A stretch of DNA of 58,557 nucleotides, taken from an uncultured Muribaculaceae bacterium. GTDB taxonomy: Bacteria; Bacillota_I; Bacilli_A; RF39; UBA660. The notes under the pieces are model-generated. The model was not told the DNA's origin and searched no databases. It worked only from the letters and a program-made list of their open reading frames with translations. A program made the position numbers and the translations under genes. Shown piece by piece: positions 2,577 to 54,665 of this stretch. The stretch lies in assembly GCA_964369625.1 (NCBI GenBank), contig CAYJFC010000001.1:1-58557 (forward strand). The letters are read 5' to 3'. Each line of letters begins with the position of its first letter. The stretch's first letter is position 1.

Positions 2577-4298
2577 TTACTTTTTAATAAGTGAACGATA
2601 TACTTCTTCTATATGTAAATTGCTACATGTATTTTCTTTATTACTTAATATGTTTATAACATGCCAACATTTAATAGCTGCTTCGTAAGTTTCTAATGTT
2701 AACATAATATTTTGTGATTTAAAGTATGTGACAATTTCTTCTATATTTTCACTTGTTATTTTAGATGAGCCGTAATAATCATTTTCTTTGTATATAGCAT
2801 TATTCTTTTTATTAAATTTTGGTAATTTTGGCAAAGAGTAATCCGCTGTAGATTGCAGCGAAATAACTCCTTGAACTCTTAAAAATTTTGTTATTATTTT
2901 TATTTCTTCATTTTCCAAATTTTCTTGCATAAATTCGAAAAATTTCTCGCTAGTTTTTAATGGAATTAATTTTAATATATTATTAACTTCAATTATTTCT
3001 TCATATAATTGTTTTGTGAATAGATTAACCACTATATTATTTTTATCTATCGCTAAAAATGCTAATATAGGCATTTTTTGAACTATTATTTTTTTTACAT
3101 GATCTATTTCCAGAATATCGCTTTCTTTATTGTAACATTCAAAATAACGAAGTATCATTTCTAGTGTTTTTTTATATGCAGTCTTATTACTAATAGTTAT
3201 CTGTAAATTTTTTACTATTTTTTCATCTATATATTCATACTTTCCTTCTAGTGTGCTACATAAATTATCTAAAACATTAACTTTATATTCAGTTATTTCT
3301 TCTATCTCAGTTATTTTTTTTATTTCTCTATTACGAATTTTATCTATAACTTCTTTAAAAGCAGCTACTCTTTTTATATTTGTTTGTTTTTTATATTCAG
3401 TATGTTTGCTTTTAGTTATTAACAATACTTGTTCTACTTTTTTAAAAAATTCAATTCCCTCTATGATACTAATATCAAAATTATCTTGATCTCCATTTAA
3501 TTTATATTTATCTATTTCTTTTTTTGTTGATAAATAAGTAATAAATAATGCATCATTAAAAGCCTTTGGAGTATCATAATTTTTGAACAATTCTAAATTA
3601 TCTTTAAAAAATTTCGAAAAATTTATTTCTGGACTATTATTAAATTTTATAACAGTTTCTATTTTTTCTATATTAAAAACTTCTTTAAAATTTTCAAAGC
3701 TATCTTTTAATTCATTACTTATTATTTTTTCTAATAAGCACTTCTCCGTTTTGTTTATTTCACTTAATACTTCATTAAACAGCTCGCTTAACTCAATACA
3801 TTCTAAATCTCTATTCCTATTTTTGCTAATAATTGTATGGATTTTTCCATTACTTTTTTTTAACAATAATTTTAATTCCGTTGCTGTTATTTTGTTTGCT
3901 GTATACATTTTTCTGCATTTAATAAGTTCTTTTTTCATTGTATACATGTTTTCATACATCTTTTTAATAAAATTAAACATTTCATTTCCAAGCATTTGAT
4001 CTATGATTATCTCTAGTTGACATAATATATTCATTTTTTCTTTATCATGTATATTTTTTTGTTCGCTAGGTATTTTATTTATATTACTTATAAGATATTT
4101 CTTAAGTTTTTCTCTTTCTACGCTATATTTATACATTTCATCTAATATATTTCCAGCTTCGCTGTAAAAACTTTCAACATTAGGATAAACAGGCAATTTA
4201 TAATTCATAAATTGCTTTAATTCTTTATACAAATTAAAATCAAAATTTTTTAACATATTATTTATAATAGCTGTTATTTCTTTTTCTTTTGTTTTCAT
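2577..4298 (-). CDS. Hypothetical protein (~573 aa), orphan gene between rpmH and dnaA
   Basis: Long uninterrupted ORF in an AT-rich genome; the track gives 2577-4313 from a TTG. I prefer the ATG at 4296-4298 because it is preceded by GGAGA. I recognise no domain or catalytic motif. The composition is K/E/I/N-rich and looks largely helical. Confidence 0.7.
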   Translation of the reverse strand: MKTKEKEITAIINNMLKNFDFNLYKELKQFMNYKLPVYPNVESFYSEAGNILDEMYKYSVEREKLKKYLISNINKIPSEQKNIHDKEKMNILCQLEIIIDQMLGNEMFNFIKKMYENMYTMKKELIKCRKMYTANKITATELKLLLKKSNGKIHTIISKNRNRDLECIELSELFNEVLSEINKTEKCLLEKIISNELKDSFENFKEVFNIEKIETVIKFNNSPEINFSKFFKDNLELFKNYDTPKAFNDALFITYLSTKKEIDKYKLNGDQDNFDISIIEGIEFFKKVEQVLLITKSKHTEYKKQTNIKRVAAFKEVIDKIRNREIKKITEIEEITEYKVNVLDNLCSTLEGKYEYIDEKIVKNLQITISNKTAYKKTLEMILRYFECYNKESDILEIDHVKKIIVQKMPILAFLAIDKNNIVVNLFTKQLYEEIIEVNNILKLIPLKTSEKFFEFMQENLENEEIKIITKFLRVQGVISLQSTADYSLPKLPKFNKKNNAIYKENDYYGSSKITSENIEEIVTYFKSQNIMLTLETYEAAIKCWHVINILSNKENTCSNLHIEEVYRSLIKK

Positions 4299-4322
4299 AT
4301 TTTCTCCATTCAATTAAAGTTA

Positions 4323-4351
4323 ATACTAACAAAACACTAATCAATTGTCAA
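4323..4351 (-). promoter_or_regulatory. Candidate sigma-A promoter of the orphan gene
   Basis: On the - strand: TTGACA (4346-4351), a 17-nt spacer, then TAGTAT (4323-4328). It lies about 25 nt upstream of the ATG at 4298. Confidence 0.5.
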
Positions 4352-4520
4352 CGAATTGGTGGAAATTATTTTTTTAACAATTTTATTAACATTTTTAATA
4401 ATTTTTTTTACTAATTTCCGTCTTGTTTTTCATTTATTAACACTATTAACATATATTAACAATTATTAAAATAACAAATATATATAAATGTTATTTTGTT
4501 TAAATCATTTTGTTAATATA

Positions 4521-4529
4521 TGTGGAAAA
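4521..4529 (-). promoter_or_regulatory. DnaA box, one mismatch (TTTTCCACA on - strand)
   Basis: tgtggaaaa on the + strand, compared with the consensus TTATCCACA. Confidence 0.55.
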
Positions 4530-4561
4530 GTACACTTTGACTTTTATTTAGGCTTTATTTA

Positions 4562-4570
4562 TGTGGATAA
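4562..4570 (-). promoter_or_regulatory. DnaA box, perfect consensus (TTATCCACA on - strand)
   Basis: tgtggataa on the + strand, about 100 nt upstream of the dnaA start. Confidence 0.8.
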
Positions 4571-4667
4571 CTTTGTTATTATAACGTTATTAAATATTTT
4601 TTACTTTATTTTTATGTGAAAATGTTTTACAATTTATTTAGATTTGTTATGCAGGGTGGGTGAGATA

Positions 4668-6014
4668 ATGAAAACTGATGAACTATTTAAAAAATTTTTA
4701 AGTGAAATTTCAAATGATCTCACTCAAAACACATATAATATTTGGTTTTCTAAATTATCTTTAGTTTCTATAGTGGAAAATATAGTAACGATAAAAGTTC
4801 CCATGAATGTTCATAAAACTATGCTAGGTGACAATTATTACTCTTTAATTGAAACAACTTTTTATTCTATAACAGGAAAAAATTATAATTTTAAATTTGT
4901 ATTAGAAGAAGAAATAGAAGATTTGTCCTCTATTGTTGATAATTCCACAGAAATAAATGAAATTGAATGGAACACTAACCTAAATAATAATTTAGTTTTT
5001 AGTAATTATGTAGTAGGGGATACTAATAGATTAGCATTTGTAGCAGCAAAAGCAGTAGCAGAGGCTCCTGGAACTATACACAATCCGTTATTCTTATACG
5101 GAAGAAGTGGTTTAGGTAAAACACATTTAATGCATGCCATTGGTAATTATATTACTGAAAACTCCAAATCCCAGGTTTTATACACAACAAGTAATGATTT
5201 CATGACTGATTTTACGGGAATAGCTAATGTTGATAAAGGCATTAATAGTATAAACTATGCTAATGAATTCAAAAATAAGTACAGAAATGTAGATGTTTTA
5301 ATGATTGATGATATTCAGTTTTTAGTTGGAGCCGAAAGAACTCAACAAGAATTTTTTCATACATTTAATGCTTTGCATCAACTTAATAAACAAATAATAA
5401 TAACATCTGATAGATCACCAGATGATTTAAAAAAAATAGAAGAACGATTAAGAAGTAGATTTAAATGGGGTTTACCAGTTGATATATATCCTCCAGATTT
5501 TAATCTTAGATGTGAAATTATAAAAGCCAAAATTAAAAACAGTAGTATAGAACACAAAATAAATAAAGACGTTATTGAGTATATTGCTAATAATTGTCCT
5601 AATGATGTTAGACACATAGAAGGAACTATTAACAGACTCATGGCTTATACCGCTATGATGATTCCAACTAAAATCACTTTGGATTTTGCAATTGAAGCTT
5701 TAAAAGATTATGTTAATAAAAATGTTTATTCTGCTAATTCTATTACTAATATTCAACAAATTGTAGCAGAATATTATAAAATAACTGTTGAAGATATGAA
5801 AAGTAAAAAAAGAAATAGTAAGGTTATAAGGCCAAGACATATTGCTATGTACTTATCACGATCAGAAACAGATGAAAATCTAGCCAAAATTGGATTAGAA
5901 TTTGGAGGGAGGGATCATTCAACAGTTATTGCAGCATGTGAAAAAATAAAAAATGACTTGAAAACAGATTTAAATCTTGATAAAGTGTTGAAAGAAATAA
6001 AAGAAAAGTTATAA
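4668..6014 (+). CDS. dnaA: Chromosomal replication initiator protein DnaA
   Basis: Walker A GRSGLGKTHL, the AAA+ region, and a C-terminal DNA-binding helix (IAMYLSR...LAKIGLEFGGRDHSTV). The start is moved from the track TTG at 4644 to the ATG at 4668, which follows a GGTGGGTGAG SD. Confidence 0.95.
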   Translation: MKTDELFKKFLSEISNDLTQNTYNIWFSKLSLVSIVENIVTIKVPMNVHKTMLGDNYYSLIETTFYSITGKNYNFKFVLEEEIEDLSSIVDNSTEINEIEWNTNLNNNLVFSNYVVGDTNRLAFVAAKAVAEAPGTIHNPLFLYGRSGLGKTHLMHAIGNYITENSKSQVLYTTSNDFMTDFTGIANVDKGINSINYANEFKNKYRNVDVLMIDDIQFLVGAERTQQEFFHTFNALHQLNKQIIITSDRSPDDLKKIEERLRSRFKWGLPVDIYPPDFNLRCEIIKAKIKNSSIEHKINKDVIEYIANNCPNDVRHIEGTINRLMAYTAMMIPTKITLDFAIEALKDYVNKNVYSANSITNIQQIVAEYYKITVEDMKSKKRNSKVIRPRHIAMYLSRSETDENLAKIGLEFGGRDHSTVIAACEKIKNDLKTDLNLDKVLKEIKEKL

Positions 6015-6067
6015 AGTGTTAATAACAATTTGGCTAAAAATAAGCAAAAATAACCTTTTTTTAGAGG

Positions 6068-6085
6068 TTATCAACATTATCAACA
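6068..6085 (+). promoter_or_regulatory. Two directly abutting DnaA boxes (TTATCAACA TTATCAACA) in the dnaA-dnaN spacer
   Basis: Each box has one mismatch to TTATCCACA. They are head-to-tail with no gap and are followed by a purely A/T stretch up to the dnaN SD. Confidence 0.6.
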
Positions 6086-6128
6086 CTATTAATATAAATA
6101 TAACAATATAAAGAAAGAAGGAAATAAA

Positions 6129-7312: not shown

Positions 7313-7753
7313 ATGGAAAATTTTATAATAAATAAAAACACATTAGCAATAATACCAACTTATGATGGCAGCAAAGTTATTAACATTAATAACACACAAA
7401 AAACACTACAAAAAGCAAAAATAATTGTTGATAGAAGTTGTAAACATTATGGAAGTAGCTTAGAGGGAAGAATATGTGGTACAAAATATATTTTAGGAAT
7501 AGGTTATAAATCACCAATAATTATAAGCGAAACTAAAAAAATTATATTTTTTCCAACAGAATCAATAAATAGCGATAATTGTGCATGGATAAATTTATCT
7601 GCTATTGATAAATATTCACAAAAAACAAAGAAAGAAACAAGTATTAACATGGTAAATGGAGAAAAATTGGATTTAAAAATAAGTTATGGAATATTAGATA
7701 GACAAATTTTGAGAGCTTCGAGATTAGAAAATTTATTTTTAGCTAGAAAATGA
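7313..7753 (+). CDS. ComK-family protein (short, 146 aa)
   Basis: The core IVDRSCKHYGSSLEGRICGT...SPIII....IIFFPTES.....CAWINL...ISYG aligns by eye with B. subtilis ComK as I recall it (IVDRSCRFFGSSYAGRKAGT..PPIMV...IFLFPTLS....CGWIS...ISYN). A GGAGG SD is present. Confidence 0.7.
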   Translation: MENFIINKNTLAIIPTYDGSKVININNTQKTLQKAKIIVDRSCKHYGSSLEGRICGTKYILGIGYKSPIIISETKKIIFFPTESINSDNCAWINLSAIDKYSQKTKKETSINMVNGEKLDLKISYGILDRQILRASRLENLFLARK

Positions 7754-10883: not shown

Positions 10884-13331
10884 ATGGATAAATTAGAACA
10901 ACAAAATATAGTTAATGAAATGGAAAAATCATTTCTTGAATATTCTATGAGTGTAATTATTTCAAGAGCATTACCTGATTTAAGAGATGGTTTAAAACCA
11001 GTTCATAGAAGAATTTTATATGCAATGCATGAAGATGGCTTAACACCAGATAAACAGTTTAGGAAAAGTGCGACAACAGTAGGTAACGTATTAGGTAGAT
11101 ATCATCCACATGGTGATACATCTGTATATGATTCAATGGTAAGAATGGCACAAGATTTTAGTTATAGATATCCTTTAGTTGAAGGTCACGGAAACTTTGG
11201 ATCAATAGATGGAGATGGAGCAGCAGCTTATCGTTACACAGAAGCTAGATTACAAAAATTATCATTAGAGCTTTTAAGAGATATTAGTAAAGATACAGTT
11301 GACTTTGAACCAAATTTTGATAATTTAAGAAAAGAACCTAAAGTTCTTCCTTCAAGATACCCAAATATATTGGTTAATGGTACAATGGGTATTGCTGTTG
11401 GTATGGCTACAAATATACCTCCTCATAATTTAGGAGAAATTATAGATGGATGCGTTGCATATATAGATAATAGAGAAATTGATATTCAAGGATTAATGGA
11501 ACATATAAAAGGTCCGGATTTTCCTACAGCAGCTTCAATTTTAGGTAATTCAGGAATTAGAAAAGCATATGAAACTGGAAAAGGTTCTATTACAATAAGA
11601 GGTAAAGCTGAAATTGAAGAAACTAATACTAGAAGTAGAATAATTATTACTCAGCTACCTTATCAAGTTAATAAAAAAAGTTTTCAAGAAAAAATAGGAC
11701 AATTAGTAAGAGACAAAATTATTGATGGAATATCTGATTTAAATGATGAATCAACACTGAAAAACGGTATAAAAGTAGTAGTTACTTTAAAAAAAGATGC
11801 TAATGCTAATGTAGTATTAAATAATTTATATAAACATACTCAATTACAAACATCATATGGTATTAATTTGTTAATGCTAGATGAGGGGGAACCTAAAACT
11901 TTAAATCTTAAAGAAATTTTAGCAAAATATACAGATTATCAAAAAATAGTAATTATTAGAAGAACTAAATTTGAATTGAATAAAGCAGAAAAAAGAGTTC
12001 ATATATTAGAAGGTTTGAAAATAGCTTTAGATAACATAGATGAGGTTATTAAACTAATAAGAGCAGCAAGCAACGATGAGGAAGCAAAAAACGGTTTAAT
12101 GAGTAAATTTGGATTAACAACAATTCAAGCAGAAGCAATTCTGGAAATGAAGTTAAGAAGACTTACTGGTTTAGAAAAATCTAAAATTGAAGATGAATTA
12201 GCTGAACTTATGAAAGAAATAGATCGTTTAAGAGGAATATTATCAGATGAAGAAAAAGTAATGGCTATTATAAAAGAAGAATTACTTGAAATTAAGCATA
12301 AATATGCTGATGATAGAAGAACAGAAATAGATATGACAGCTATAGAGTTTATAGAAGATGAATCTTTAATACCTGAAGAAAACGTTATTATTATGTTAAC
12401 AAAAGCAGGTTATATTAAAAGAACACTCCCTGGAGAGTTTAAAACTCAAAATAGAGGTGGTGTAGGAATTAAAGGAATGACCACTAATGATGAAGATATT
12501 GTGGAACAATTGATTAATTTATCAACACACGATTACATCTTATTTTTCACAAATAAAGGTAAAGTGTATAGACTTAAAGGTTATGAAATTCCTAGTTTTG
12601 GTAGAACAGCAAAGGGAATACCTGTTGTTAATTTATTACAAGTAGAAAAAGACGAAAAAATTAATTCAGTAATATCTGTTAGTAATACCGAAGAAAGCAA
12701 ATATTTAATGTTTGCTACTAAACATGGTATTGTTAAGAAAACAAGAATAGATGAATTTGACAATATAAGAACAACTGGAAAAATTTCAATTAATTTAAGA
12801 CCTAATGATGAATTAATAAGTGTAAGAAAAACTTCTGGAGAAAATCTTGTATTATTAGGATCAAATGCGGGAAGAATGGTTAAATTTAATGAAAATGAAT
12901 TAAGACCTATGGGGCGTACAGCCTCAGGAGTTAGAGGTATTAATTTAGATTCAGCAGAATGTGTTTGTTCTGAAGTAGTATCTGAAGACAATTTAATTTT
13001 GTTATTAACTGAAAAAGGGTATGGCAAAAAAACTTTTGTAAGTGAGTTTAGACAAACAAAAAGAGGATCAAAAGGTGTAAAAGCATTAAATGTAACAGAA
13101 AAAAATGGACAATTGATTTCTGCTAAGCTTATTAACAATGAAAATGAGCTAGTATTAATGACTAATATAGGATTAACTATAAGAATGCCACTAGATCAAA
13201 TATCAACATTGGGAAGGGTGACACAAGGATTGCGATTGATTAATTTAAAAGAAAATCAGCAAGTATCAAGTGCTGTGTTACTTAATTCACCACAAGAAGA
13301 AGTAAAAACAGAGGAAGAAGCAGCAGAATAG
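10884..13331 (+). CDS. gyrA: DNA gyrase subunit A
   Basis: The QRDR region [10 protein letters not shown] and the catalytic [10 protein letters not shown] motif are present, with C-terminal beta-pinwheel repeats. Confidence 0.95.
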
Positions 13332-13350
13332 CTGTTTTTTTTCACGGAAA

Positions 13351-13366
13351 TATTTCCCGGGAAATA
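13351..13366. promoter_or_regulatory. Noc-binding-site (NBS)-type palindrome TATTTCCCGGGAAATA, copy 1
   Basis: Perfect 16-bp palindrome containing ATTTCCCGGGAAAT, the B. subtilis NBS consensus as I recall it. The CCCGGG core stands out in this AT-rich DNA. It overlaps a second palindrome, GGAAATATTTCC (13346-13357). Confidence 0.7.
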
Positions 13367-13383
13367 ATATTATGTAAACCATT

Positions 13384-13399
13384 TATTTCCCGGGAAATA
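13384..13399. promoter_or_regulatory. Noc-binding-site (NBS)-type palindrome TATTTCCCGGGAAATA, copy 2
   Basis: Identical 16-mer, centre-to-centre 33 bp from copy 1. Confidence 0.7.
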
Positions 13400-13421
13400 T
13401 TTTTAGGTATAAAACAACGTT

Positions 13422-13445
13422 AACAACAAACGAATGTTTGTTGTT
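13422..13445. repeat. Inverted repeat AACAACAAAC-gaat-GTTTGTTGTT (10-bp arms)
   Basis: Perfect 10-bp arms at 13422-13431 and 13436-13445 with a 4-nt loop. No T-run follows on either strand. Confidence 0.6.
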
Positions 13446-13476
13446 GGTCATTTATCATTTGTTGAGTGTTTTGTGT

Positions 13477-13513
13477 GAAATTTTAAAATTCGCTAGAGCA
13501 AATTTAAAATTTC
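13477..13513. repeat. Inverted repeat GAAATTTTAAAATT-n10-AATTTAAAATTTC (about 13-bp A/T arms, one bulge)
   Basis: Arms at 13477-13490 and 13501-13513 separated by cgctagagca. No T-run follows. Confidence 0.5.
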
Positions 13514-13529
13514 AAAAACAACATTTGCA

Positions 13530-13545
13530 TGTTCCACGTGGAACA
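13530..13545. promoter_or_regulatory. parS-type palindrome TGTTCCACGTGGAACA, copy 1
   Basis: Perfect 16-bp palindrome (18 bp with the flanking A/T). It fits the ParB/Spo0J parS consensus TGTTNCACGTGAAACA except that it is fully symmetric at position 12. Confidence 0.75.
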
Positions 13546-13565
13546 TTGGATAATAAATTATATAT

Positions 13566-13581
13566 TGTTCCACGTGGAACA
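13566..13581. promoter_or_regulatory. parS-type palindrome TGTTCCACGTGGAACA, copy 2
   Basis: Identical 16-mer, centre-to-centre 36 bp from copy 1. Confidence 0.75.
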
Positions 13582-13593
13582 TAAAAAAAACAC

Positions 13594-13622
13594 TTGCAAA
13601 TGACTACGAAATTTGATATCAT
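13594..13622 (+). promoter_or_regulatory. Candidate sigma-A promoter of the SRP RNA
   Basis: TTGCAA (13594-13599), a 17-nt spacer, then TATCAT (13617-13622) preceded by TG at 13614-13615. Confidence 0.55.
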
Positions 13623-13627
13623 TTATA

Positions 13628-13706
13628 TGTGCAACAAATATATTGTAAACTGGTCAGGATCGGAAGATAGCAGCCACGTCAGTCAATGTTTGTGTGCACA
13701 TTTTTT
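13628..13706 (+). ncRNA. ffs: Signal recognition particle RNA, short (4.5S-like) form
   Basis: GGTCAGGATCGGAAGATAGCAGCC matches the universal SRP domain IV pattern GGUCAGGUCCGGAAGGAAGCAGCC, including the GGAA tetraloop and the AGCA loop. The 5' tgtgcaacaaa pairs with the 3' tttgtgtgcaca to close one long hairpin, and a T-run follows. The neighbourhood (tadA, dnaX) is the same as for B. subtilis scr. Confidence 0.85.
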
Positions 13707-13718
13707 GTGGGAGAAATT

Positions 13719-14132
13719 ATGGATTATATGAAAGTTGCGCTTGAAGAAGCTAAAAAAGCTTTTTTTAAAAAAGAAGTCCCTGTCGGTGCTGTATTGGTTC
13801 AAAATGGAAAAATTATAGCTAAGTCACATAATAATAGAGAAAAAACCAAAAATGTGTTAGGACATGCTGAAATTAATGTGATAACGAAGGGTTCAAAAAA
13901 AATAAAAGTTTGGAAATTAGATGATTGCGATTTATATGTTACTTTGAAACCTTGTAAAATGTGTGAAGAAATAATAAAACAAGCTAGAATTAGAAATGTA
14001 TATTATTTGATAGATAAAAACAAAAACAAAAAAGAATACGACAAAGTTGAATTTGTGAAAAAGGGAATAGAAAAAACTGAAGAAGCGAAATATATGAATT
14101 TGCTTAGTGAATTTTTCAAATTGATGAGATGA
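13719..14132 (+). CDS. tadA: tRNA-specific adenosine deaminase
   Basis: CDA zinc motifs HAEINV and PCKMC are present. The start is moved to the ATG at 13719 (GTGGGAG SD) because the track start at 13686 lies inside the SRP RNA. Confidence 0.85.
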   Translation: MDYMKVALEEAKKAFFKKEVPVGAVLVQNGKIIAKSHNNREKTKNVLGHAEINVITKGSKKIKVWKLDDCDLYVTLKPCKMCEEIIKQARIRNVYYLIDKNKNKKEYDKVEFVKKGIEKTEEAKYMNLLSEFFKLMR

Positions 14133-14148
14133 AATCTAGATAAAGATA

Positions 14149-14157
14149 TGATATAAT
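14149..14157 (+). promoter_or_regulatory. Extended -10 element (TGATATAAT) upstream of dnaX
   Basis: TGnTATAAT lies about 18 nt upstream of the dnaX ATG region. Confidence 0.35.
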
Positions 14158-14174
14158 AATGAGTAGGAGGAAAC

Positions 14175-15731
14175 ATGAGTTATAGAGTGTTATATAGAAA
14201 ATATAGACCAACAGATTTTAAAGATTTAATAGGCCAAGATACTATGGTGAATATATTGCGAAAGAGTGTTGTCAACAATAAAATATCTCATGCATATATA
14301 TTTTCTGGACCAAGAGGTACTGGTAAAACAAGTTCTGCTAAAATTTTTGCTAAAATGGTAAATTGTCTAAATGCCAAAGATGGTAATCCTTGTAATGAAT
14401 GTAATAATTGTATTGGATATGATAATTCAAGCGATATTATCGAAATAGATGCAGCTTCAAATAATGGTGTAGATGAAATAAGAGAAATAACAAATAATAT
14501 AAAGTTAGCACCAAATTCTTTGAAATACAAAGTGTATATAATAGATGAAGTGCATATGTTAAGCCAAAGTGCCTTTAATGCTTTATTATTAACATTAGAA
14601 GAACCACCAAGCCATGTGATATTTATTCTAGCTACAACTAATGTAGAAAGTGTGCCTATAACCATTTTATCTAGATGTCAAAGATTTGATTTTAAAAAAG
14701 TTACTATAGCTAATATAGTAAAAGTGTTGCAAAAAGTAGCCCAACAAGAAAATATAAATATATCATCGGAAGCGATTAATGAAATAGCTTATTTATCAGA
14801 TGGAGGATTGAGAGACAGTTTAAGTTTATTAGATCAGTTGTCCAAGCAAGAAGCGGAAATAACATTGGAATTAGTTACCAAATCTGTAGGTAATGTTTCT
14901 GGTCAAATTGTTAATGAGTTGTTAATGTATATAGAATCAAACAAATGTTCGGAATTGATAGAAGAGTTAAACGAGTTATCATCTAAATCTGTTGATATTA
15001 AGTTGTTAATAAAGTCATTAGTTGATGCTATTTCAAAATCTGTGAAACATATAATTGAAAACGAAAAAGAAAGTTGTCTTTCGTTAACAGATTATAAAAA
15101 TTTAGTATTTGATCTAACAGATTTAATAAATAAAATAAATGTTAGTGTAGATCCCTATGTAATGCTAGAAATAACATTGTTATCTTATATAAAAGCAAAG
15201 CCAACTAAAGAAAAAAATGTTCCAGAAGAAAGCAAGACCATGCCGGTTACAAATAAAAAAACAGTTAAAATCAAAGAAAAACCTATTTTAGTAAAAAATT
15301 ATGACAAATTAATTGAAGTTAGAGTTAATAATTGTTTTGTTAATGCTACAAAGGAAGATAAAATAAAAAATGTTGATAAGTGGGAAGAATTTAGGGAGAT
15401 CGTAATACCTAAATATAAAGGTTTAATACTGGATTTGAATGTAGCCATTGCTTCTGATAATATATTAGTATTAACTTGTGATAGAAAAAATGATATTGAT
15501 GAATTGTATGAAAATATAAAAGAAATAGAAAATTATTACAATGGTCACTTTAAAGAATTAAAAAAATTAGTATTCATTTCTGTAGAAGAATGGCAAAAAT
15601 ATTCAAAAGAGTATATAGAAAATATGAAAAATGGTGTAAAATATAATTATATCGAAGAAAATGTTGATAATGATGAACTTATAAATATTGCAGATAGTAT
15701 ATTTGATAGTTCTAAAATTGAAGAAAGGTAG
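14175..15731 (+). CDS. dnaX: DNA polymerase III subunit gamma/tau
   Basis: Walker A GPRGTGKTS, a zinc module CNECNNC, Walker B IIDEVHML, and SRC (LSRCQRF). Confidence 0.92.
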   Translation: MSYRVLYRKYRPTDFKDLIGQDTMVNILRKSVVNNKISHAYIFSGPRGTGKTSSAKIFAKMVNCLNAKDGNPCNECNNCIGYDNSSDIIEIDAASNNGVDEIREITNNIKLAPNSLKYKVYIIDEVHMLSQSAFNALLLTLEEPPSHVIFILATTNVESVPITILSRCQRFDFKKVTIANIVKVLQKVAQQENINISSEAINEIAYLSDGGLRDSLSLLDQLSKQEAEITLELVTKSVGNVSGQIVNELLMYIESNKCSELIEELNELSSKSVDIKLLIKSLVDAISKSVKHIIENEKESCLSLTDYKNLVFDLTDLINKINVSVDPYVMLEITLLSYIKAKPTKEKNVPEESKTMPVTNKKTVKIKEKPILVKNYDKLIEVRVNNCFVNATKEDKIKNVDKWEEFREIVIPKYKGLILDLNVAIASDNILVLTCDRKNDIDELYENIKEIENYYNGHFKELKKLVFISVEEWQKYSKEYIENMKNGVKYNYIEENVDNDELINIADSIFDSSKIEER

Positions 15732-25249: not shown

Positions 25250-25379
25250 ATATTAATTCCTTTCGGTCATATTATATCACAGATATATGTATTTTTAGAA
25301 TAAATTGTATTTGAATATATTTATAAATTATGTTAATATAGTGTTAATTAGCAGTGAAAAAAATGAGTAATAGTTAATA

Positions 25380-25547
25380 TTTTAAAGAGAGTTAGTAAAT
25401 GGTGTAAGCTAATAAATTAATACTATGAATATGGTTTTTGGAGTTAAATCGTGTAATTACGTTAAAGATATAAGTTGCATGTAGATTCATGAATTAAGGT
25501 GGTACCGCGGGTTTTGCTCGTCCTTGCATTAGTTCGTGAATTTTTTA
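25380..25547 (+). promoter_or_regulatory. T-box riboswitch leader, probable Met (AUG) specifier
   Basis: An AGAGA box is at 25386-25390. The T-box sequence AATTAAGGTGGTACCGCGG is at 25492-25510. The terminator arms are 25485-25497 and 25529-25541, followed by T6. The candidate specifier ATG-A is at 25425-25428, and metG lies downstream. Confidence 0.8.
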
Positions 25548-45900: not shown

Positions 45901-46785
45901 GTGAATAATAATAATACAGTATTGCAAATACCAATTGAGGATTTAATACCTAATCGTTTTCAACCACGATTATCTTTTGATGATGCTTCATTAAAAGAAT
46001 TAGCCGCTTCAATTAAAGAACATGGAATAATACAACCACTTGTTATACGAAAAATAAACGGAAAGTATGAAATAATTGCTGGAGAAAGAAGATATAGAGC
46101 TGCAAAAATGGTAGGATTATTATCCGTTCCTGCTATAATAAATGAATTATCAGATGGCCAAAGTGCTGAAGTAGCTATTGTTGAAAACGTTCAAAGAAAA
46201 GATTTAACTGCAATAGAAGAAGCAAGAAGTTATAAAGCTTTACTTGATAAAGGTTTAATGAGCCAAGAGGATTTAGCAAAAAAAATGGGATTATCTCAAA
46301 GTTCTATTTCTAATAAATTAAGATTGCTATCACTAAGTGATATTGTGCAAGATGCAATTTTAAATGAAAAAATATCTGAAAGACACGCAAGAAGTTTATT
46401 AAAGATAGAAAATTTTGAAGATCAAAATAAATTGCTTGATCAAATATTAACAAGAAGATTAACGGTTAAACAATTAGAAGAAGAAATAAAAAAAATTCTT
46501 CCGAAAAAGGAAGAAGAAGTTATATCTCCAATTGATTTAACTATTGAAGAAGATAAAACAGTAGTTTCTGAAATTAGAAAAACAAATAAATTTTTTAATT
46601 TTATATCAGATCCTATTGAAACAAAAAAAGAAGAAGAAATAGAAATGTTAGATGACTTTTTTCTTCCTAAAACAAATGAAAAATTAGATAAATTAAAAGA
46701 ATTTTTAACACAAGAAGGAATTAATATTTTAGAAGAAAAAACGGAAAATGATCAAACTATATTAAAATTAATTATTAAGGATTAG
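45901..46785 (+). CDS. noc: ParB-family protein of the Noc (nucleoid occlusion) type
   Basis: GTG start after AGGGG. It has IPNRFQPR, GERRYRAA, and the HTH region LSQSSISNKLRLL...ISERHARSL. These resemble B. subtilis Noc as I recall it (IPNRFQPR, QSTIANKLRLL, ITERHARAL) rather than Spo0J (RPNPYQPR, RPHIANHLRLL, LSMGHGRTL). Its position right after rsmG matches B. subtilis noc. Confidence 0.7.
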   Translation: MNNNNTVLQIPIEDLIPNRFQPRLSFDDASLKELAASIKEHGIIQPLVIRKINGKYEIIAGERRYRAAKMVGLLSVPAIINELSDGQSAEVAIVENVQRKDLTAIEEARSYKALLDKGLMSQEDLAKKMGLSQSSISNKLRLLSLSDIVQDAILNEKISERHARSLLKIENFEDQNKLLDQILTRRLTVKQLEEEIKKILPKKEEEVISPIDLTIEEDKTVVSEIRKTNKFFNFISDPIETKKEEEIEMLDDFFLPKTNEKLDKLKEFLTQEGINILEEKTENDQTILKLIIKD

Positions 46786-54609: not shown

Positions 54610-54665
54610 ACAAACGGCAAACAAAATCTATGCTTAAAATTAAGCATGGCGGAAGGAGAATATAA

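Follow-up and report, generated by a model that had tools for sequence, protein, structure and literature searches.

Noc and ParB are textbook diverged paralogs, in which scattered Noc-binding sites (NBS) serve the control of division and origin-proximal parS sites serve chromosome segregation. Among the Firmicutes, Streptococcus pneumoniae, like Staphylococcus aureus, has a ParB system without ParA. In S. aureus, Noc is accompanied by an unlinked ParB and no ParA, the NBS core is identical, and spreading extends over 8-10 kb (PMC5540599). Pseudomonas aeruginosa has four oriC-proximal parS sites (PMC4368675). Four residues decide between parS and NBS, being R173, x, x and G201 in ParB and Q173, K179, K184 and R201 in Noc; Q173 and R201 specify NBS, and one lysine, at either 179 or 184, is enough (Jalal et al. 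2020, PMC7383237). In the variant library of that study, parS binders invariably had R173, and variants of dual specificity mostly had T or S at position 201 (PMC7383237). The N-terminal amphipathic helix of Noc (amino acids 1-14) is extremely conserved, and deletion of 10 residues abolishes both membrane binding and function (Adams et al. 2015, PMC4331003). Our comparison with the Noc-NBS systems was based on Wu et al. 2009, Adams et al. 2015 (PMC4331003), Pang et al. 2017 (PMC5540599), and Jalal et al. 2020 and 2021 (PMC7383237, PMC8429893).

The DNA analyzed here, called the window, is the whole stretch of 58,557 nucleotides (58.5 kb). Its host is a low-GC (~25%) endospore-forming Firmicute, which encodes Spo0A, SpoIIR, SpoIID, SpoVT, YabG, and YabP. 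The GC-skew switch and the DnaA boxes put oriC around dnaA, at approximately 4.3-6.1 kb, and therefore the cluster of sites described below lies ~9 kb into the right replichore. The preliminary description of this DNA had noted two perfect palindromes directly after gyrA and had read the B. subtilis NBS consensus in them. It was found that both palindromes are indeed present, 33 bp apart from start to start, with copy 1 beginning 20 bp past the gyrA stop codon, and that this identification was right: the 16-bp palindrome TATTTCCCGGGAAATA, with the core ATTTCCCGGGAAAT, is identical to the published NBS at 16 of 16 bases in both copies, and its text appears verbatim in Noc/NBS papers (full-text literature search). 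These two are the only exact matches in the window, against an expected count of 0.00 in 100 dinucleotide-preserving shuffles, and a search of the window that allowed up to 3 mismatches gave no third copy. The flanks prolong the symmetry, as had been proposed, although the arms (13348-13367 and 13383-13402, 100% complementary) are 20 nt long and not ~21 bp.

The 291 bp that separate gyrA from the small SRP RNA gene (ffs) contain a second class of site as well. The sequence TGTTCCACGTGGAACA, which the full-text literature search identified as the canonical perfect parS of, for example, P. aeruginosa, occurs twice in the window (0.03 expected), with the copies 36 bp apart and the pair 146 bp downstream of the NBS pair. 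Thus, the window has two perfect copies of the parS palindrome TGTTNCACGTGNAACA at ~9 kb from oriC, and the order of sites in the spacer is NNPP (N, NBS; P, parS). The coordinates of these and the neighboring features are given in Table 1.

Table 1. Features of the gyrA-ffs spacer, its surroundings, and the Noc-type gene (positions in the window).
Feature	Position	Strand	Evidence or remark
oriC region: GC-skew sign change and DnaA boxes	4314..6128		boxes at 4521 and 4562 upstream of dnaA, and at 6068 and 6077 in the dnaA-dnaN spacer
gyrA, conserved left boundary of the spacer	10884..13331	+	NCBIfam, 1170 bits
20-nt perfect inverted repeat formed by the two NBS and their flanks	13348..13402		fold and arm comparison
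NBS copy 1, perfect 16-bp palindrome TATTTCCCGGGAAATA	13351..13366		exact match, shuffles, literature identity
NBS copy 2, perfect 16-bp palindrome	13384..13399		exact match, shuffles
Terminator-like hairpin AACAACAAAC-GAAT-GTTTGTTGTT, between the NBS pair and the parS pair	13419..13448	+	terminator scan/fold
parS copy 1, perfect palindrome TGTTCCACGTGGAACA	13530..13545		exact match; canonical parS in the literature
parS copy 2, perfect palindrome TGTTCCACGTGGAACA	13566..13581		12 nt (13582-13593) before the -35 element of the SRP RNA promoter
Promoter-like TTGCAA-17-TATCAT, TG-extended, directly 5′ of the SRP RNA	13594..13622	+	promoter scan
ffs, small SRP RNA gene, conserved right boundary of the spacer	13623..13708	+	Rfam RF00169, 57 bits (gathering score 40)
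dnaX, with ybaB and recR next; downstream context is conserved	14175..15731	+	window annotation, relatives, metagenome loci
Noc-type ParB-family CTPase, predicted NBS binder, 294 aa	45901..46785	+	domains, Q-K-S-R, GERRxRA intact

Several other features of the window were recorded. In Firmicutes, the interval between dnaN and recF is usually occupied by the small S4-like gene yaaA; here, it holds a gene for a ComK-family protein (PF06338, E = 1e-38) at 7313-7753 on the + strand. An ORF of 578 aa (2577-4313, - strand), which has no Pfam or NCBIfam match, lies between rnpA and dnaA at the GC-skew switch, and unannotated genes of ~510-520 aa that resemble it follow jag in two relatives (L085 and L086). 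Two ordinary leaders were present (window 25345-25528 and 54628-54658), namely a T-box that precedes the dUTPase and metG genes and the ribosomal leader L31-Firmicutes.

The arrangement was evaluated in other genomes by a GyrA scan of contigs from one genome per species, which gave 37 relatives, all of them MAGs of uncultured gut 'Bacilli' or 'Tenericutes' (GyrA 66-89% identical), and 43 Bacteroidota loci that served as controls. Nearly all of the relatives have a parS array of up to 16-17 copies directly 3′ of gyrA, usually with perfect NBS, and ffs is in the matching position. The controls contained neither NBS nor parS, perfect or with 1 mismatch; the lone hit was an NBS-like sequence with 2 mismatches (L055). 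Four contigs titled 'uncultured Muribaculaceae' (L003-L006; CAYJBC, CAYJKL, CAYJEI, and CAYJFJ, from ERP123703) have a GC content of 24-28% and a GyrA 75-89% identical to that of the window, and the three in which the spacer is present (L004-L006) carry Firmicute-type parS/NBS arrays; judged by these sequences, the label looks wrong.

For quantitative comparison we used 30 species-level relatives (631 kb). All 153 of their parS sites lie in the gyrA-ffs spacer, which is 0.2-2.4 kb long and makes up 5% of the DNA. The same spacer holds 35 of the 61 perfect NBS, or 1.11 per kb compared to 0.043 per kb elsewhere, a 26-fold enrichment (binomial p ~1e-29, uncorrected for phylogeny, as are all of these spacer statistics). 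NBS are present in 21 of the 30 spacers, and the other nine have parS alone; therefore, NBS are common in the spacer but not obligatory. Where both classes occur, in orders such as NNNPPPPPPP, NPPPPPN, and PPPPPPPNN, it was found that NBS hold 25 of the 42 ends of the parS arrays, against 12.1 expected from label shuffling. No NBS/parS hybrids were seen among the mapped sites of the relatives, and so the two are discrete classes.

Across the window and the 37 related loci, conservation is limited to the 16-mer of the NBS, and the information content of the flanks is near zero. No coding sequence is present in the spacers, whose GC content is 13-29%, and the stretches that separate the sites mostly bear no relation to one another, which indicates that the sites are maintained individually. 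Recent tandem duplication was considered as a source of the arrays and holds for one relative (L030) and for some metagenome arrays but not generally. In L030, the 2.4-kb gyrA-ffs spacer is filled by a tandem repeat of 141-154 bp (12485-14845), formed from 16-17 copies of parS in an asymmetric variant, TGTTCCACGTGTAACA, and no NBS is present in that spacer.

NBS outside the spacer recur at homologous places, namely the jag-mnmE spacer and the interiors of ybaB, a methyltransferase gene, and the dnaX linker, which resembles the dispersed and largely intragenic pattern of B. subtilis Noc. Five relatives (L010, L017, L021, L023, and L036) have a perfect NBS between jag and mnmE, ~11.3 kb before the gyrA stop codon; in B. 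subtilis, this spacer holds a cluster of DnaA boxes. The variable dnaX linker contains triplets of perfect NBS in L007 (5325-5436, 48-bp spacing) and L039 (4155-4251, 39-42-bp spacing), and so DNA sites appear to be maintained within coding sequence.

The metagenome scan used the pattern NBS-N{8,38}-parS and gave at least 120 contigs, of which 116 have gyrA, ffs, dnaX, or ybaB-recR beside the array (19-38% GC, most of them 21-31%). Three of the remaining contigs were too short to tell, and the fourth, L170, is different in kind. It has 49% GC, and its 900-bp rsmG-soj spacer, upstream of soj-parB, holds one perfect NBS besides three or four parS (1553-2335); here, an NBS stands beside parS at a classical rsmG-spacer-soj-parB locus that has no noc gene in between.

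Many of the metagenome arrays interleave the two classes, as in PNPNPNPNPP and NPNNNPNPNPNPNPNP. Start-to-start distances between neighboring parS and NBS peak at 24-29 and 36-37 bp, so that dyads with 9-21 bp between the sites are frequent, a frequency that is biased upward because these loci were chosen for adjacency. In the species set, which was not chosen in this way, 11 of 34 neighboring N-P gaps were ≤52 bp. Dyads are also iterated, as (P-27-N-45) x4 in L158, (P-28-N) x5 in L101, and (N-37-P) x7 in L202, and the flanks of dyads from different contigs are unrelated. A tight parS-NBS dyad is absent from the window itself. DnaA boxes were considered as a third component of the arrays but were found in only 18 of 119 metagenome loci and 2 of 37 genome loci, with none in the window. 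In six contigs (L089, L157, L200, L088, L109, and L176), parS-DnaA box-NBS triplets are formed, in which the 11-13-bp linker of the dyad, TTGTGGATAAAAT, contains a perfect DnaA box.

Conservation in related genomes, a matter raised in the preliminary description, was therefore borne out for the individual site: most of the related species, and more than 100 metagenome contigs, have perfect NBS in this gyrA-proximal spacer, and this recurrence indicates that they are selected as DNA sites. The proposal that the pair is a nucleation site for a Noc-type clamp is supported, in that each element that could be evaluated held up. As a conserved unit, however, the tandem pair did not hold up, because, when the window and the 37 related loci are taken together, 47 of the 65 perfect NBS are without a second NBS within 150 bp. 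What is conserved is the association of NBS with a parS array, which was absent from the preliminary description.

The protein that had been named as the candidate Noc-type CTPase, encoded at 45901-46785, contains the ParB_N and HTH_ParB domains (Pfam). Its best NCBIfam model is TIGR04285 (Noc), at 271.4 bits and thus under the cutoff of 315, and its scores against Noc chains (7ng0, 7nfu, and 7ol9) were 190-197 bits compared to 169 bits against B. subtilis Spo0J (6sdk). A residue-by-residue alignment of the specificity positions (GLSQSSISNKLRLLSL...SERHAR) gave Q-K-S-R, and all 120 of the closest homologs have Q-K-(T/S/N)-R. On these grounds the protein and its homologs are predicted to be NBS-specific. 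The position that departs is 184, where the clade has S, T, or N and Noc has a nearly invariant lysine; a search of supplement text of Jalal et al. for the QKSR combination gave no match. The gene directly follows rsmG (gidB), the position that noc has in B. subtilis, and the order mnmG-rsmG-noc-like, with a convergent PBP1A gene opposite, is kept in distant members of the clade. There is no soj-spo0J beside the noc-like gene in the window or in these distant members.

The N terminus sets this protein apart. It starts at the equivalent of residue ~26 of B. subtilis Noc, so that the N-terminal amphipathic helix is absent, and the N termini of all 120 homologs are short and polar. Together with the sub-cutoff TIGR04285 score, this suggests that the cellular role may differ from nucleoid occlusion. 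The protein belongs to the ParB family and has NBS-class residues, but it is not a canonical Noc. The AF2 model is confident for the ParB_N and HTH_ParB domains, and the linker between the HTH and the short C-terminal dimerization domain is hypervariable in the clade alignment and predicted to be disordered. Within this linker are two near-invariant motifs, P-NKFFNFLE (residues ~229-236, with NKFFNF at 229-234) and EEIEMLDDF (245-253), which are candidates for binding to the membrane or to a partner. No other segment of the protein has a helical hydrophobic moment as high as that of NKFFNF (0.66, compared to 0.48 for the N terminus of B. subtilis Noc), and we take this motif to resemble SRFFGLG of the Noc helix. 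It was considered as an alternative membrane helix and set aside, as AF2 puts it in the disordered linker.

The search for a ParB of the parS type, and for ParA, was done by tblastn with the window protein and with B. subtilis Spo0J and Soj, and it covered the window, 37 gyrA loci, 6 noc loci, and 120 metagenome loci. Only noc-like orthologs and the unrelated L170 contig were returned, and a parS-type ParB was seen neither in the 58 kb of the window nor, in ~160 related loci, at a distance of up to 10 kb from gyrA or from the noc-like gene. The window has a single ParB-family gene and no ParA.

We interpret the palindromes of the window as NBS that probably act as loading sites for the Noc-type protein and form part of a composite parS and NBS centromere, to which we assign a probability of about 75%. 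That such a composite centromere is conserved in the gyrA-ffs spacer throughout a large clade of gut Bacilli that are uncultured, low in GC, and spore-forming is likewise probable. The principal competitor holds that the two classes are co-located without functional coupling: in a genome that is compact and AT-rich, the spacer would be the cheapest non-coding place for GC-rich 16-mers, origin-proximal sites would be needed by ParB and the Noc-type protein alike, and the NBS would be ordinary Noc sites. This agrees with the NBS that relatives have elsewhere near the origin, mostly within genes, and with the spacers that contain parS only, and it may hold for the window itself, which has 146 bp between its two pairs. 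However, it explains poorly the bias of NBS toward the ends of the arrays, as well as the recurrence of tight dyads at the preferred spacings in more than 100 contigs with unrelated flanks and the iteration of whole parS-NBS modules in L158, L101, and L202, and we consider it rather unlikely. An RNA element is very improbable. In that case, the two NBS copies would pair in the gyrA transcript as an intrinsic terminator and have no role as protein sites, and the predicted fold is a strong one (-47.7 kcal/mol, z = -6.8), with a 20-bp perfect stem and a 15-nt loop followed by UUUUU. Yet this inter-copy hairpin, with its loop of 15 nt and AT-rich stem end, is not conserved in relatives, the window has a separate terminator-like hairpin (Table 1), and NBS occur on either side of the arrays and within genes. 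Conservation of the exact 16-mer only, without covariation, and the prevalence of NBS that have no partner indicate that the conserved entity is the DNA site; in the genome of the window, the hairpin may nevertheless be a secondary gyrA terminator, going by the modeled fold.

It is also conceivable, but improbable, that a single protein binds both NBS and parS, in which case the Q-K-x-R protein would nucleate at both and there would be no separate ParB. The presence of one ParB-family gene and no ParA in the 58 kb around oriC and in the related loci would fit, as would the departure from the Noc consensus at position 184 and the existence of dual-specificity variants in the Jalal library. Against this, the parS binders of that library all had R173 and the dual binders mostly T or S at 201, whereas the clade has Q173 and R201; relaxed specificity would predict hybrid sites, which were not found; and in S. 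aureus parB is unlinked from noc and ParA is absent, so that an unlinked parB has a precedent, and the loci compared represent a small part of each genome. The chance that the palindromes belong to an unrelated regulator, or are remnants of a repeat or mobile element resembling NBS by coincidence, is close to negligible. Other dimeric HTH proteins could in principle recognize palindromes centered on CCCGGG, and nothing more specific speaks for them; the match to NBS is 16 of 16, the site co-occurs with the Noc-type protein across the clade and is absent from the control genomes, and the flanks are unrelated between copies and species, which indicates that there is no element structure.

For the composite centromere, a mechanism can be proposed by analogy with the Noc proteins of B. 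subtilis and S. aureus and with ParB, from which we infer NBS binding and CTP-clamp behavior. A dimer of the Noc-type protein would read each 16-bp palindrome through its HTH, with Q and R contacting the two positions that discriminate NBS from parS and with K179 as the permissive residue. CTP binding would then close the N-terminal gate, and the clamp would slide onto the flanking DNA. A separate ParB of the parS type, encoded elsewhere, would load likewise at the neighboring parS, and two paralogous clamp systems would thus be assembled side by side, ~9 kb from oriC. Candidate purposes of the coupling are the marking or anchoring of the origin region, the bounding of the ParB array, and cooperation between the two clamps.

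The tight, iterated parS-NBS dyads suggest a further reading, which we offer tentatively and hold to be possible, with the odds against it. The clade protein may be a second centromere-binding CTP clamp beside ParB and not a nucleoid-occlusion factor; the partition complex would then be mixed or bounded, and the linker motifs NKFFNFLE and EEIEMLDDF would tie the origin region to the membrane or to a partner in division or replication. If true, it would give the first example from nature of two paralogs of the ParB family that act as clamps on one locus. The arrangement raises the questions of whether paralogous CTP clamps cooperate, block, or bound each other, what role a Noc has without its membrane anchor, and how the centromere is organized in ParA-less Firmicutes with reduced genomes. 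It also has a practical use, because the order gyrA, parS/NBS array, ffs, dnaX is a signature by which the origin region can be recognized in MAGs of this clade.

When compared with the described systems, the clade shares with the Noc-NBS of B. subtilis and S. aureus the 16-bp NBS, the ParB_N and HTH_ParB domains, the GERRxRA CTP motif, the Q/K/R residues, the gene position after rsmG, and origin-proximal sites, to which the relatives add dispersed intragenic NBS. With ParB-parS centromeres it has in common the perfect TGTT(N)CACGTG(N)AACA sites clustered within a few kb of oriC, those of the window being the perfect P. aeruginosa parS. With the ParA-less ParB systems of Firmicutes it has in common that no soj/parA lies near the origin, and in S. 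aureus, too, parB is not adjacent to noc. The literature searched gave no report of NBS that cluster or interleave with parS, ParA-less Firmicutes included, and none of a Noc clade without the N-terminal helix. NBS and Noc being known, the novelty therefore lies in the variant arrangement. The differences are as follows. Unlike the parS clusters of the P. aeruginosa type, those of the clade are packed into a single non-coding spacer, which in relatives holds up to 16-17 copies over 2.4 kb; the sites of a paralogous protein stand alongside, and neither a ParA gene nor a parS-type ParB gene was seen in the origin region. Whereas canonical Noc sites are scattered, the NBS of the clade are concentrated at, or interleaved with, the parS array, and both types of site are kept at one chromosomal address, often iterated as a unit, in well over a hundred uncultured genomes. 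In contrast to canonical Noc, the clade protein has S, T, or N in place of K184, scores below the TIGR04285 cutoff, and has the two linker motifs, which Noc does not; and it has lost the membrane-targeting helix on which the canonical mechanism depends.
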